Assembly: GCF_004353825.1 (NCBI RefSeq)
Contig: NZ_SMNA01000015.1
Location: 62,001 to 126,000 of the forward strand
Source of the DNA: Occultella glacieicola
Lineage (GTDB): Bacteria > Actinomycetota > Actinomycetes > Actinomycetales > Beutenbergiaceae
DNA: 64,000 nt
Direction of reading: 5' to 3'
Shown here: positions 5,334 through 9,499 of the stretch, piece after piece
Numbering within the stretch: the first letter of the stretch is position 1
How the letters are laid out: each line of letters opens with the position of its first letter
Notes under the pieces: generated by a model
Database searches by the model: none
Seen by the model: the letters and a program-made list of their open reading frames with translations, nothing else
What the model was told of the DNA's origin: nothing
Position numbers and translations under genes: made by a program

Positions 5334-5391
5334 CGGGTACGGCTTGATTGTGCCTGATAGGAATTTTCAGCACATCAACGGAGATCTGAAC

Positions 5392-7824
5392 ATGACTTTC
5401 ACGCCGTCACGTCGCCACTTCCTGCTCGGCGCCTCGGCCGCCGCGGCACTCTTCGCCAGTGGGAGCCCGGCGCTACCGGCCGCCGCGGCCGATCCCTACC
5501 AGGAACTGCTCGCCCGGCGTCGCGAGTTCCTCACCGGTGGGTCGCTGGCCGCCTCGCACGTCGGGCTCGCCGCCAAGCGGGCCGCGATCGACGAAACCGT
5601 GTCGGGCCTGCTGGCCACCTTCGAGCGGACGCCGGGACGTACCTACCTCTGGCCGGAACTGCCGGTGAACGGTGCGGGCAACACGGCCGAGGTGGGCAAT
5701 CTGGGGGTGACCGCGAATCAGGTCACCGTCCTGGCCACCGCCTGGGCCTCGGCGGGCAGTCGCTACCACGACGACCCCGACCTGCTCGCGGATCTTCAGG
5801 GAGCGCTCGCGTTCCTGTCCGGGCAGTACCGAGCGGACCGCTCCCGGCCCGGAAACTGGTGGTTCTGGGAGATCGGGCTGCCCCGACAACTGGCGGACAC
5901 CCTGACCCTGCTCGGTGCGAACGTCCCCGCCCAGACCCTGGCGGCGCTGATGGCGGCGGTGCGCTTCCATGCCCCGGATCCGAACGTGCGACGCGGCTCC
6001 ACCCTGAAGGAGACGGGCGCGAACCGGGTGGACAAGGCGCTGTCCTGCATCGTGCGCGGGCTGCTCACCGGCTCCGACGCCGACGTCACGCTCGGCCGCG
6101 ATGCGCTCTCCGACGTGGCCGGCGGCGGGCGCAACAGCCTGTTCAACGTCGTCACCTCGGGCGACGGCTTCTATGCCGACGGTTCGTTCGTGCAACACGG
6201 CTACCTGCCCTACTCGGGCACCTACGGTGGCGTCGCCATCACCGGGGTCGCGGAGGTGCTGGCCATGCTCGCGGGAAGTCGGTGGGCCGTGACGGACGCG
6301 AACCTGGCCAACCTGCTGGACGCGGTGGACACGACGTTCGCTCCGTTCCAGTGGGACGTGCGGACCATGGATGCCACCCGTGGCCGGGCGGTGTCCCGGC
6401 AGGCGGAACGGGACTACGACTCCGGCTTCGCGATCGCCTCGGCGGTCCTGGTACTCGCGGAGTCGGCTCCCGCCGAGCAGCGCTCACGGCACCGGGCCCT
6501 GGTGAAGGGTTGGCTCGAGCGCACCACCGACCAGTCGGTGGCCACGAACGACCAGACGCTCGCAGCCTCGGCGCGGAGCCTGGCCGTGCTGGAGGATGCG
6601 GGGGTGCCGGCAGGTCCGGCGCGTACCGGTACCACGAACACCTACAACCAGGAACGGGTCGTTCACCACCGCGGTGACTGGGCCGCCGTCGTGAACACGT
6701 CCTCGCGGCGGATCGGCCGCTACGAGTGGGGCAACCGGGAGAACAACCTGGGCTGGTACCAGGGCGACGGGGTGCTGTTCGTGTACCACCGGGAGGATCC
6801 GGCGCAGTTCTCGGCGGACTTCTGGCCGACCGTGGACCCCTATGCGTTGCCCGGCATCACGGTCAACGGCGAGTCCCGCGCGAGCGGGGAGGCGGACGGC
6901 ACCGGGATCCCGCGGGCCGGCAACACCTACGCCGGCGGGCTGACCGTCGGCGGCGAGATCGGCACCACGGCGATGGACCTGACCAACGCCACCGGCACCC
7001 TCACCGCGAACAAGTCCTGGTACTTCCTGTCCGGCTCCGTCGTGTGTGTGGGGTCCAACATCGCGGACACCTCGGGAACGGGGGTGCGCACGATCGCCGA
7101 GAACCGCGCGTTCGCCGTCGGCGCCCGTCCCGTGGTGCGCATCGACGGTAGGCCGGCCATGCTGACCGAGGACCTCGCCCCGGCGCGGAACGTGCACGTG
7201 GCGGGCCATGCCGGGTTCGTCGCGCTGACCGCTCCCGGCCGGGCCGAGCAGCGGTTCGGGGTCCGGGCGGAACGCCGCACGGGCACCTGGCAGGCGATCA
7301 ACTCCGGTGGCGACACGGCGGGCTCGGCCGACGAGGTCTCCCGCGACTACGTGCGGATCGAGCACCACCACGAGAGCGAGGCCGGGTGGTACGCCTACGA
7401 GGTGCTCCCGCTGGCCACCCTCGGGGAGACGATGAGGCGGCCCCGGGTCAGCGTGCTGCTCGCCGAGGACCTGGCGCACCTCATCGAGACCCTCGACGGC
7501 GCCCGGATGGGACACTTCTTCGCCGCCGGCGCCTGGGCCGGCTACACGGTCAGCGGCCCGTGCGCGGTGGGACATCGCCAGGTCCCGGCGGCTCCGGGGT
7601 CGGGCGGGCCAGCGCAGGTGCGGACCGAGGTCGTCATCTCCCAGCCGACGAAGTCCGGAGGCCAGGTGACGGTGGAGTTCCCGTTCGACGCGCCGGGCGC
7701 CGTGGTCGACGCCGACGCCACGGTCACCGTGCTGGGCAAGACGCCGCTGAGTGTGCGGGTGGATGCCTCGACGCCGCGCGGCGCCGAGCATCGGATCACG
7801 TTCGGCGGCCGCCGGCGTCGATGA
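5392..7824 (+). CDS. Polysaccharide lyase family 8 (hyaluronate/chondroitin lyase-like), Tat-exported
   Basis: Tat signal SRRHFLL; NWWFWEIGLP, TGANRVD, DGFYADGSFVQH..PYSGTYG and RGRAVSR PL8 motifs. Confidence 0.93.
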   Translation: MTFTPSRRHFLLGASAAAALFASGSPALPAAAADPYQELLARRREFLTGGSLAASHVGLAAKRAAIDETVSGLLATFERTPGRTYLWPELPVNGAGNTAEVGNLGVTANQVTVLATAWASAGSRYHDDPDLLADLQGALAFLSGQYRADRSRPGNWWFWEIGLPRQLADTLTLLGANVPAQTLAALMAAVRFHAPDPNVRRGSTLKETGANRVDKALSCIVRGLLTGSDADVTLGRDALSDVAGGGRNSLFNVVTSGDGFYADGSFVQHGYLPYSGTYGGVAITGVAEVLAMLAGSRWAVTDANLANLLDAVDTTFAPFQWDVRTMDATRGRAVSRQAERDYDSGFAIASAVLVLAESAPAEQRSRHRALVKGWLERTTDQSVATNDQTLAASARSLAVLEDAGVPAGPARTGTTNTYNQERVVHHRGDWAAVVNTSSRRIGRYEWGNRENNLGWYQGDGVLFVYHREDPAQFSADFWPTVDPYALPGITVNGESRASGEADGTGIPRAGNTYAGGLTVGGEIGTTAMDLTNATGTLTANKSWYFLSGSVVCVGSNIADTSGTGVRTIAENRAFAVGARPVVRIDGRPAMLTEDLAPARNVHVAGHAGFVALTAPGRAEQRFGVRAERRTGTWQAINSGGDTAGSADEVSRDYVRIEHHHESEAGWYAYEVLPLATLGETMRRPRVSVLLAEDLAHLIETLDGARMGHFFAAGAWAGYTVSGPCAVGHRQVPAAPGSGGPAQVRTEVVISQPTKSGGQVTVEFPFDAPGAVVDADATVTVLGKTPLSVRVDASTPRGAEHRITFGGRRRR

Positions 7825-7829
7825 CGGGC

Positions 7830-8333
7830 TCAGCGGGTGCTGGCGATCTCGCGGACGAACCGCTCCGAGCGCTCGCGCAGCCCGGCGATCCGGCGCTGCA
7901 CGATCTGCTCACGCGCGGCCTGGTCGCTGGCCTCGACGGGCGTCGGGGTCCGGCGCACGTTGGCCGAGCAGGCGAACGCGCGGCAGATCAGGGTGCCGAC
8001 CGTGTTGCCGCGCCGGCCGGCCTCACCTCCGCGCCGGGCTACGTAGAGCACCACATCGCCGGTTTCGACGACGTCCTCGCACCAGGCGCACATGGCCTGA
8101 CGGCGGGAGCGCCCGGTACGCGCATCGCCGGACTGGAGGCGGATGCCGGTGGGCTCGCCGTCGATCTCGAGCACGGCGTACGCGGACAGCGGGGCCTTCG
8201 GGTCCTGCCAGCCGAGGTAGTCGAGTCGGTCCCAGGCGATCGTGGCGAGCTCGGGCAGGACCGCCCGGTTGGCCTCACCTCGGGAGGCGTTGATGAAGGA
8301 GTTGCGGATCTGCTTCTCGGTCAAGGGGTTCAT
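7830..8333 (-). CDS. FBP-domain protein (FusB/Far-like C-terminal treble-clef zinc finger, EF-G-binding family)
   Basis: IRNSFINASRGEA, WDRLDYLGWQDPKAP, CAWC...GNTVGTLICRAFACS 4-Cys motif. Confidence 0.85.
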   Translation of the reverse strand: MNPLTEKQIRNSFINASRGEANRAVLPELATIAWDRLDYLGWQDPKAPLSAYAVLEIDGEPTGIRLQSGDARTGRSRRQAMCAWCEDVVETGDVVLYVARRGGEAGRRGNTVGTLICRAFACSANVRRTPTPVEASDQAAREQIVQRRIAGLRERSERFVREIASTR

Positions 8334-8424
8334 GGGTCGGGTCTTCCTGGAGGGTCCGGGTCAGGGCAGCATGAAGCCCACCCCATCGCAAGCACTGTCC
8401 GGGTCCGGTCGGTCACCGGCTCGG

Positions 8425-8514
8425 TCAGCTGCGGGTGAGGCGGGCGCCGGCCGGGCCTGAGCAGGCCTGTTCGAACACGTCGGCCACCCCGCAACCTGCG
8501 GTGAGATCCCGCAC
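8425..8514 (-). CDS. Putative leader peptide (uORF, 29 aa) upstream of the FBP gene
   Basis: AGAGGAG RBS 7 nt before GTG at 8514; reads (M)RDLTAGCGVADVFEQACSGPAGARLTRS-stop; below ORF-track cutoff. Confidence 0.45.
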   Translation of the reverse strand: MRDLTAGCGVADVFEQACSGPAGARLTRS

Positions 8515-8659
8515 CTACTCGCTCCTCTTCCGGGCAACACGGCCCGCAGTGGCGGACCCTCGTCCAGGCTACGACCGTTGTCCACCGGATTGTGCAAGCT
8601 CGACGCGATCGCTCACCGCCCCGGTCGCGGATGTGCAGCCGGCATCGGAGACTGGGCCG

Positions 8660-9499
8660 ATGGGAACACCGGAGACCTCCGACCGCGGGCGGGACTCCTC
8701 GCTGCGCCTGCCCGCCCGTCGGTCCGACCGTCCGTGGGCGCGGCGGATCGCGGTCAGCGCCGCGTTCGTGGTCTGTGTGATCGGTTCGATGATCGGGGTC
8801 GGCGTTTTCGGGGGTACGCCGATCTCGGAGGCGGCCGGCGGCCTCCTCGCCGCGGACGGCACTTATATAGCGCCGGGCAGCGGGGCATTCTCGATCTGGA
8901 CCGTGATCTATGTGGGCCTCGGTCTCTACACGCTCTGGCAGTGGTGGGACGCCGACTCGCGCGGCCTGGCGTGGCTCGCCGCGGCCTCGATGGTGCTGAA
9001 CGCGGCGTGGATCCTGGTGGTGCAGGCGGGCTGGGTGCTCGCGAGCGTTCTCGTGATCGCCGCGTTGCTGGGCGTGCTGTCCGCGCTCTTCGTGCGGTGT
9101 CACAGGAACCGTCCGGCCGGTCGGGTCGAGGCGGTCCTGACCGACGGCGTCTTCGGTCTGTACCTGGGTTGGGTCTGCGTCGCGATCTGCGCGAACGTCG
9201 CCGCCGCGCTCGTGGGCGCCGGCTTCGACGGGTTCGGGGCGCCGCAGTGGTGGGCGGTCGGTGTGCTCGCCGTCGCCGCGCTCGTCGGCGTGGCGCTGGC
9301 CCGCTTCGCGGCCGGTCGCCTTGCGGTCGCCGCCGCGCTGATCTGGGGACTGGCCTGGATCGCCGTTGCCCGGGCGGCGACCGAGCCCTCCTCGACGGCC
9401 GTGGCGATCGCCGCGGGAGTCGCGGCCGCCGTGGTCGCCGTGGCCACCGTCGTGACCAGGCTGCGCGGCATGCCCTCTGTCGGGACGCCCGTACGCTGA
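8660..9499 (+). CDS. TspO/MBR-like tryptophan-rich membrane protein
   Basis: IAPGSGAFSIWTVIY, LNAAWI, FGLYLGWVCVA; multiple TM segments. Confidence 0.8.
   Translation: MGTPETSDRGRDSSLRLPARRSDRPWARRIAVSAAFVVCVIGSMIGVGVFGGTPISEAAGGLLAADGTYIAPGSGAFSIWTVIYVGLGLYTLWQWWDADSRGLAWLAAASMVLNAAWILVVQAGWVLASVLVIAALLGVLSALFVRCHRNRPAGRVEAVLTDGVFGLYLGWVCVAICANVAAALVGAGFDGFGAPQWWAVGVLAVAALVGVALARFAAGRLAVAAALIWGLAWIAVARAATEPSSTAVAIAAGVAAAVVAVATVVTRLRGMPSVGTPVR

Follow-up and report, generated by a model that had tools for sequence, protein, structure and literature searches.

Among the causes of fusidic-acid resistance in the clinic, FusB-type proteins rank first, and their chromosomal relatives are suspected of being housekeeping translation factors. 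As described in one report (PMC12008383), the N-terminal bundle of FusB wedges between domains I and V of EF-G, while the C-terminal domain pairs with EF-G domain IV and contacts the small subunit. Expression of the pUB101 fusB gene is presented in a 2025 review (PMC12493156) as a case of translational attenuation, in which the mRNA adopts an alternative structure once ribosomes inhibited by fusidic acid have stalled in the leader; the same review calls the regulation of FusB homologues unknown. Upstream open reading frames (uORFs) also serve as sensors elsewhere: according to the respective reports, inefficient translation of the actinobacterial whiB7 uORF signals translation stress (PMC10274678), and toiL of topAI-yjhQ and the erm, cat and msrD leaders sense ribosome-targeting drugs by codon-specific stalling (PMC12121999, PMC5499644, PMC10314930). 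Here we analyze a 64,000-nucleotide stretch of the actinobacterium Occultella glacieicola (the window; contig NZ_SMNA01000015.1, positions 62,001 to 126,000), in which a stand-alone gene for a FusB-related FBP_C protein (minus strand, 7830-8333; ATG at 8333, stop at 7830; 167 codons) is preceded on the same strand by a conserved uORF.

On comparative sequence evidence, this uORF is most likely part of a previously undescribed leader-peptide, ribosome-pausing regulator attached to a FusB-related gene, and it probably acts as a pausing sensor that sets expression of the downstream FBP_C gene. A literature search that lay outside subscription journals and supplements turned up no paper on this uORF or on FBP_C proteins of Actinobacteria. 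A preliminary description of the locus had proposed a translational attenuator and had pointed to the staphylococcal fusB precedent, which the 2025 review does state (PMC12493156).

A conserved upstream open reading frame

The uORF of the window occupies 8514-8425, from a GTG at 8514 to a TGA at 8427-8425, and in the list of open reading frames it comprises 29 codons encoding the leader peptide MRDLTAGCGVADVFEQACSGPAGARLTRS. Direct reading places a Shine-Dalgarno (SD) sequence, GAGGAG, at 8527-8522 (AGAGGAG at 8528-8522), 7 nt before the GTG, and a likely, weak ribosome-binding site (RBS) of the FBP_C gene, GGAAG, at 8347-8343, 10 nt before the ATG at 8333. Every element listed in the preliminary description could be located in this way on the minus strand.

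To compare loci, we used two sets of FBP_C genes. The first came from close relatives, where 17 of 41 genomes hold a homologue, and comprises 18 loci; the second came from a named genome collection and comprises the best 80 of 593 relatives, at 54-82% identity, from Occultella, Ruania, Pseudactinotalea, Cellulomonas, Cellulosimicrobium, Promicromonospora, Isoptericola, Actinotalea, Pedococcus, Intrasporangium and Blastococcus, together with metagenome-assembled genomes (MAGs) of Nocardioidaceae and Motilibacteraceae. Within 450 nt upstream of the gene, 77 of the 98 loci have a frame that opens with a start codon behind an SD-like sequence and encodes a peptide of the form ..AG[C/S][G/E][V/A][A/G]xxACS.., the pattern missing 8 of the 18 close-relative loci and 13 of the 80 named ones. 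Among these 13, two have too little upstream sequence, one (L044) has its uORF farther upstream, and five (L007, L009, L043, L046 and L077) have recognizably divergent versions. An nhmmer profile of the stretch from the SD to ACSG matches 70 of the 80 best named loci, in several actinobacterial orders, and none of 21 distant FBP_C loci (a class-wide sample at 35-52% identity) or of 25 loci with a chance nucleotide-pattern match. From the leader alignments and this profile, we take the uORF with its strong RBS, as first described, to be genuine and conserved, and it is likely translated.

Its form is best seen in 72 non-redundant leaders, which were chosen for having the frame and thus describe form, not frequency. 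The start codon is ATG in 65 and GTG in 7, the stop is TGA in all 72, and the length is 26 codons in 43 leaders and 25 in 16, within a range of 22-35. GAGGAG precedes the frame in 60 leaders, mostly 6-7 nt from the start. The consensus peptide is M..AG[C/S][G/E]VAxxACSG.., with the A, C and S of ACS each present in 72 of 72; the stretch from the Ser codon to the stop is 10 codons in 45, and the spacer from the uORF to the main start measures 48-327 nt (median 160). The arrangement at the main gene, GGAAG or GAAAG followed by N9-12 and ATG, also recurs in most orthologues (last 85 nt of the 72 leaders aligned; SD motif table). An in-frame N-terminal extension of the FBP_C protein and a conserved second frame in the leader were both considered and rejected, as stops and frames differ among relatives. 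As a separate observation, at least 90% of 63 leaders have a C directly after the uORF start, whichever amino acid follows.

Association with one clade of FBP_C genes

The Occultella genome contains a single FBP_C gene and a single match to the uORF profile (E 9.6e-12, window positions 8530-8454), all other matches having E > 1. A sequence-only covariance model (R1), run over 151 genomes of the order, gave 27 matches at E ≤ 1e-3 in 24 genomes, 16 of which lie 100-260 nt upstream of a match to PF16571 on the same strand. At E ≤ 1e-5, 13 of 15 matches adjoin an FBP_C gene; of the other two, one is at a contig end in a genome whose FBP_C gene lies at another contig end, and one, which lacks both SD and start and is enclosed in a long open frame, was taken as spurious. 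The remaining weak matches are away from FBP_C genes or in genomes that have none. Since PF16571 itself is found in 63 of the 151 genomes, and the uORF in fewer, the uORF marks one FBP_C clade. This is borne out within single genomes: Actinotalea solisilvae (L087 and L088) and one further genome (G523, contigs C31 and C78; L152) each have two FBP_C copies, and the uORF precedes only one of them, being absent from L088 and from the second G523 copy.

A minimal nucleotide pattern proved too loose for this purpose, and profiles were used instead: in the Occultella genome it gave 8 matches versus 6 for a control, the leader alone being the uORF, and in 401 genomes of the class it gave 19 matches versus 4 for the control, with one true uORF (L116), which lies before an FBP_C gene. 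A search for a downstream operon partner returned genus-level clusters only, the largest covering 8 of 80 loci, and open reading frame calls are unreliable at this high GC content.

Constraint on the peptide and on the nucleotides

Codon usage in 56 leaders anchored on the nucleotide pattern (three of them mis-anchored) points to two layers of selection. The Gly before Cys/Ser uses all four synonyms (GGG 13, GGT 12, GGA 12, GGC 10), evidence that the peptide is under selection; the Ala before that Gly is similarly free (GCG 26, GCA 23, GCC 3). At other positions the nucleotides themselves are held. The Ala of ACS is GCC in 56 of 56 leaders, its Cys is TGC in 55 of 56, its Ser is partly fixed (TCG 33, TCA 19, TCC 4), and the Gly/Glu before Val is GGG (27) or GAG (26) and no other codon, fixed bar one purine. 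The fixation of GRG-GUG-GCC and G-GCC-UGC-UCR at synonymous sites shows that the nucleotides are constrained as well. In the variant peptides GCGAAVSACSG (Promicromonospora) and GSGVGHQACSG (Isoptericola), the pattern is retained while the nucleotides change.

Two of the fixed elements have a nearly constant distance. Of the 72 leaders, 64 contain the heptamer GRGGUGG, a putative SD-like element that would pair with the anti-Shine-Dalgarno end of 16S rRNA, and in 63 the GUG codon stands 9 nt from the invariant GCC codon. The 3' end of 16S rRNA was sought in the draft genome for an anti-SD check and was not found. In the window the heptamer is GGGGTGG at 8490-8484, spanning codons G9 and V10 and the first base of A11, and the block ends in GCC TGC TCA GGC (A17-C18-S19-G20) at 8466-8455; this end of the conserved peptide is invariant and is where the pause is predicted.

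Two other accounts of this pattern need to be weighed here. The first is that the uORF encodes a small trans-acting protein, which might for example serve the zinc-finger protein as partner or cofactor carrier or else antagonize it, and which is merely co-expressed with it from a two-gene operon. Conservation at the peptide level with synonymous freedom at Gly and Ala would fit such a protein, as would the invariant Cys of ACS with a second Cys/Ser 7 residues earlier and the strict co-occurrence of the uORF with one FBP_C clade. However, some 12 residues are conserved in a frame of 22-35 codons, the C-terminal 10 vary as peptide yet stay C-rich as RNA, synonymous sites are fixed, and a 48-327 nt spacer, with which the tail pairs, lies before the main gene, all of them typical traits of leader peptides; we therefore hold a trans-acting product to be decidedly unlikely. 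The second is that the block is mainly a nucleic-acid element, for example one that is bound by a protein or an RNA or that folds into a structure, in which the open frame is incidental. GUGGCC, GGCCUGCUC and GRG are indeed invariant at synonymous positions, and the G/E position swaps chemically unlike residues while retaining the purine. Yet against this stand an SD at 6-7 nt, a start, a TGA and a frame in 72 of 72 leaders (which were selected for having the frame), a Gly codon that is four-fold free within the block, and variant peptides that keep the pattern and change the nucleotides; nor is there an Rfam match or an enriched complement in the leader, and we rate such an element as very improbable.

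The FBP_C protein

The 167-residue protein consists of Pfam FBP_C only (PF16571, E 7.2e-56, profile positions 1-155 of 155), and its four cysteines (C82, C85, C117 and C122) are invariant in 16 of 16 homologues aligned. In a profile search against the PDB, the homologue profile matches FusC (2yb5) over residues 19-128 of the protein and residues 100-203 of FusC at E 1.2e-7, with the Cys pairs aligned, and FusB at E about 5e-3. An AlphaFold (AF2) model of the protein (pLDDT 90, pTM 0.85) finds FusC or FusB as all of its top nine PDB matches in Foldseek (E 1.9e-5 to 5.7e-3, TM 0.43-0.55), the next match following at E 0.08. The N-terminal helical domain of FusB is missing, in that Pfam finds FBP_C alone and the PDB matches begin at FusC residue 100. 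Because profile and fold match only the C-terminal part of FusC and FusB, the protein corresponds, by sequence and predicted structure, to the zinc-finger domain of treble-clef type at the C-terminus of FusB together with a long C-terminal helix.

Homology predicts EF-G or the ribosome as the target of the protein. A complex prediction with residues 405-704 of EF-G from the same genome gave scores that disagree (0.00, 0.62 and 0.01; mark 0.32). The FusB-like character of the gene in the preliminary description is upheld by Pfam, profile and fold, with the N-terminal domain absent, and the release of EF-G that was attributed to the product is a matter of inference. The 'fusB' gene SCO6589 of another paper (PMC7157823) is an EF-G paralogue and was set aside as irrelevant here.

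Pairing between the uORF tail and the spacer

Beyond the conserved block, the end of the uORF changes character. In the window this tail (8457-8425) is C-rich and G-poor, variable as peptide, and a possible Rho-loading tract; over the 72 leaders, positions +5 to +40 after the Ser codon have mean frequencies of 0.50-0.57 for C and 0.23-0.26 for G, the first half of the uORF being G-rich. In a long helix with the spacer, the tail is the 5' strand. Against shuffled tails, the tail-spacer duplex has a mean z of -0.99, with 15 of 72 leaders below -1.64, and the ensemble holds 21.3 tail-spacer pairs as compared to 17.2 with dinucleotide-shuffled spacers, the real value being higher in 46 of 72 (Wilcoxon p 2.5e-4, for related sequences). 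The probability of pairing to the spacer is highest at the Gly codon right after Ser.

In consensus folds of individual genus groups, ten Isoptericola-type leaders share a 23-pair tail-spacer helix in which 5 pairs have compensatory double changes. Nine of 10 Promicromonospora leaders show the same architecture with the stop codon in the helix and no double changes, and an insertion of 0-58 nt in the leaders of this genus is restricted to the helix loop. In 8 of 14 Cellulosimicrobium leaders, GCCUGC pairs with an invariant GCGGGC, with no variation by which the pairing could be tested. Minimum free energy (MFE) folds of the window and two congeners contain an equivalent helix; in the window the spacer segment that pairs with the tail lies within 8398-8361 and consists of GCGATGGGGTGGGC (8389-8376) and CCTGA (8365-8361). 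A local spacer hairpin, GGGC at 8379-8376 with GCCC at 8367-8364, could form instead of the tail pairing. Two spacer motifs are more frequent than in shuffles, YGCCCAC in 21 of 72 leaders (shuffles 7.4±2.6) and GTGCMC in 27 of 72 (shuffles 11.9±3.4). Pairing of the uORF tail with the spacer is thus supported by these comparisons, with compensatory changes in one genus group.

The promoter region and the long-range pairing

The preliminary description had built its switch on a different structure, in which a 5' arm, CCTGGA[CGA]GGGTCCG at 8568-8553, pairs either with CGGACCCTCCAGG at 8358-8346, over the RBS of the main gene, or with CGGACCC at 8407-8401, and a stalled ribosome shifts the choice and frees the RBS. 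The complementary segments do exist (6+7 bp with a 3-nt bulge to the first partner, and the second CGGACCC), and starting the RNA at 8575 brings the long-range helix into the MFE fold. However, between the RBS region (32 nt) and the 47 nt that precede the uORF SD, the duplex has -27.4 kcal/mol, as compared to -23.7±3.5 for dinucleotide shuffles, and 143 of 1000 shuffles reach it (16 of 300 with other bounds). In 194 of 300 shuffled leaders, some segment pairs with the RBS region as well as in the real leader or better, and the z of the whole-leader fold is -0.42. Congeners do not keep the pairing, the same test in three of them giving 17 of 300 (with a different pairing), 179 of 300 and 80 of 300.

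The position of the arm also speaks against it. All 33 TANNNT matches in 65 leaders, within a scan of 105 nt, lie 45-90 nt before the uORF start, with none at -120 to -101 or at -44 to -15, and a match between -80 and -45 occurs in 29 of the 65; other leaders, by eye, have CANNNT at the aligned place. In the window the box is TAGCCT at 8571-8566, at -57 from the uORF start, from which a transcription start near 8560 is predicted, so CCTGGA (8568-8563) would be untranscribed and is most likely promoter DNA. In RNA folded from about 8560, the remaining GGGTCCG closes a local 5' hairpin, GGTCCGC (8558-8552) and GCGGGCC (8547-8541) around a CACT loop, and alignments show, by eye, comparable hairpins after the -10-like box in other genera. 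The caveat attached to the original proposal, that the 5' arm may be truncated, therefore holds, as the arm overlaps a box whose position is conserved. The three-partner pairing itself does not: it is within the range of shuffles and absent from congeners, and the long-range pairing is a chance feature of a single GC-rich sequence. A switch based on it is hardly credible as an explanation of the locus.

Some further features of this region may be recorded. A consensus promoter scan of 7700-8800 returned no sites. At 8600-8575 on the minus strand, and at the aligned positions of five other leaders (L002-L006), a small AT-rich patch is followed by TGGACA or TGGCCA (for example AATCCGGTGGACA); this arrangement is conserved in the family by eye, and its spacing to the -10-like box varies by about 11 nt between genera. 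In Isoptericola (L092-L098), the 5' hairpin is followed by four U about 20-30 nt before the uORF SD, which resembles a terminator placed upstream of the uORF, and a run of four U is unusual for these GC-rich leaders.

A proposed pausing mechanism and its output

We propose that ribosomes on the uORF would slow or stall once the conserved nascent peptide occupies the upper exit tunnel, at which moment the decoding sites would contain the invariant codons GCC-UGC-UCR. Conservation in arrest peptides usually stops at the arrest site, residues beyond it not yet being synthesized, and the end of conservation at ACSG would be explained in the same way, the downstream residues not having been made when the ribosome arrests. 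No motif of what we take to be the RAPP/RAPG-like arrest type is visible in the uORF consensus. The pause point would be where three features meet, namely the end of the peptide block, GRGGUGG 9 nt upstream and the base of the GC-rich tail-spacer helix. The helix would survive a ribosome that is held there, while one running to the TGA would melt it and expose its strands or let them re-pair, and the fate of the helix would decide the folding of the remaining leader or the exposure of the C-rich tail. The input may be impaired elongation or translocation, a signal that would fit a product predicted to act on EF-G or the ribosome. This is the reading that we consider rather probable for the conserved uORF.

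Several results weigh against this reading. The leaders offer no canonical terminator: at least 5 U in 8 nt occur in only 5 of 72 spacers, in none after a strong hairpin. In an equilibrium masking model of the 72 leaders, the accessibility of the main RBS is 0.48 for free RNA and 0.48 with a ribosome at Ser, and 0.50 with a ribosome at the stop and 0.51 with the tail covered (p 0.07-0.98, Wilcoxon). The window's own family gives no consensus fold, with 2 pairs in 9 poorly aligned leaders. The window uORF is itself atypical, with a GTG start and a 9-nt insertion (VA-DVFEQ-ACS versus VA-xx-ACS; three extra codons at 8481-8467), while three congeners keep the standard 26-codon ATG form, and its SD-like heptamer stands 18 nt from GCC, double the usual 9 nt. 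The uORF is absent from 10 of 80 close and 21 of 21 distant FBP_C genes and is thus not obligatory. The complement of the invariant 12-nt core is not enriched in the spacer or the 5' UTR versus shuffles (mean z +0.27 and +0.13). Finally, related sequences are non-independent, and all p-values are therefore overstated.

A terminator scan of 7700-8800 returned no terminator-like sites, and an Rfam scan of 7600-9000 at E ≤ 10 gave best matches with E of 0.52-7, all far below gathering scores. A simple RBS-unmasking switch is not supported, as placing ribosome masks at Ser, at the stop, on the tail or on the whole uORF had no consistent effect. The simple attenuator by RBS sequestration in the preliminary description was thus not reproduced, the main RBS being about half unpaired in every modeled state. 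Of its stalling sensor, what stands is a conserved uORF before a FusB-related gene; the RNA pairing scheme and the simple RBS sequestration are not supported. In short, the first reading picked the right object with the wrong RNA structure. Given no canonical terminator and no modeled RBS switch, we favor either Rho-dependent attenuation on the C-rich tract, resembling that of tnaC, or a kinetic, non-equilibrium effect on initiation. The same facts, along with the strong uORF SD, would suit a uORF that is translated constitutively and senses nothing, serving to unfold a GC-rich leader, to protect the mRNA or to fix a low level of downstream translation. Any open reading frame would serve these ends, though, and a 12-residue peptide kept across orders and invariant codons would go unexplained, which makes a purely constitutive role quite improbable to us.

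A narrower version of the pausing sensor can be formulated, in which the uORF is a translocation-stress sensor in a feedback loop with an EF-G- or ribosome-binding factor and contains one unusually EF-G-dependent step. GRGGUGG would hold the 16S tail 9 nt behind GCC-UGC-UCR, with the GC-rich helix in front and AGCxVAxxACS in the tunnel; when EF-G is trapped or scarce, ribosomes would dwell there, the tail-spacer helix would survive, and the FusB-like protein would be made. We regard this version as unlikely. If it is true, the uORF would define a new family of arrest peptides, and no regulator of a chromosomal FusB homologue would have been described before it. More generally, a peptide kept across orders and before one FBP_C clade only may point to a factor that is induced by a translation-derived signal. 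A defined 12-residue peptide and a few fixed codons make testable targets, and, if the arrest sequence is true, it would add a new family to a short list and offer a possible reporter for elongation or translocation inhibitors in high-GC bacteria.

Neighboring genes

The uORF and its predicted promoter lie in a divergent intergenic region (8334-8656), with a plus-strand membrane-protein frame starting near 8657. This neighbor (8657-9499, plus strand) encodes a hydrophobic protein of about 280 residues with no Pfam family; its listed open reading frame begins at 8435 and so overlaps the uORF region, the likely start being the ATG near 8657. On the other side, a polysaccharide lyase family 8 gene (5344-7824, plus strand) ends 6 nt from the stop of the FBP_C gene (7830, minus strand), and the two convergent genes nearly abut, leaving no space for separate terminators.

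Comparison with known systems

Among described systems, the staphylococcal fusB leader is the nearest precedent in function, and it too is a short translated leader before a FusB-family gene (PMC12493156, and 'aj1-LP-fusB' in PMC12561750). It belongs to another phylum, and the likeness is one of description. The actinobacterial protein is unlike staphylococcal FusB in having no N-terminal domain, and the actinobacterial leader differs in a peptide that is conserved over several orders and in an RNA for which no RBS-sequestering switch could be modeled.

The whiB7/wblC leader, the nearest actinobacterial precedent, shares with ours an actinobacterial uORF, and the report on it proposes that ribosome position chooses between leader structures (PMC10274678). 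In that same account, the whiB7 uORF is variable in length and sequence, alanine-rich, and followed by a Rho-independent terminator, whereas the peptide core of the FBP_C uORF is nearly invariant and U-tract terminators are absent. The toiL, erm, cat and msrD leaders are set apart by an RBS-sequestering hairpin or a terminator, neither of which is evident here, and by dissimilar peptides.

Two further parallels concern architecture and pausing. Programmed pause and frameshift sites in dnaX and prfB combine an internal SD-like element with a downstream hairpin. In the FBP_C uORF, fixed codons likewise follow an SD-like heptamer at about 9 nt, and a stable helix begins just downstream of them; a slippery heptamer is missing and the leaders showed no alternative frame that is conserved, so that the analogy is for pausing only. 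The tnaC leader has about 24-26 codons, conserved mid-peptide residues and a C-rich stretch at or after its end, and stalling on it blocks Rho loading. In leader length, mid-peptide conservation, long variable spacer and C-rich stretch, tnaC is the closest architecture to that of the FBP_C uORF, which differs in being without a known ligand and in a predicted pause about 10 codons before the stop rather than at the stop.

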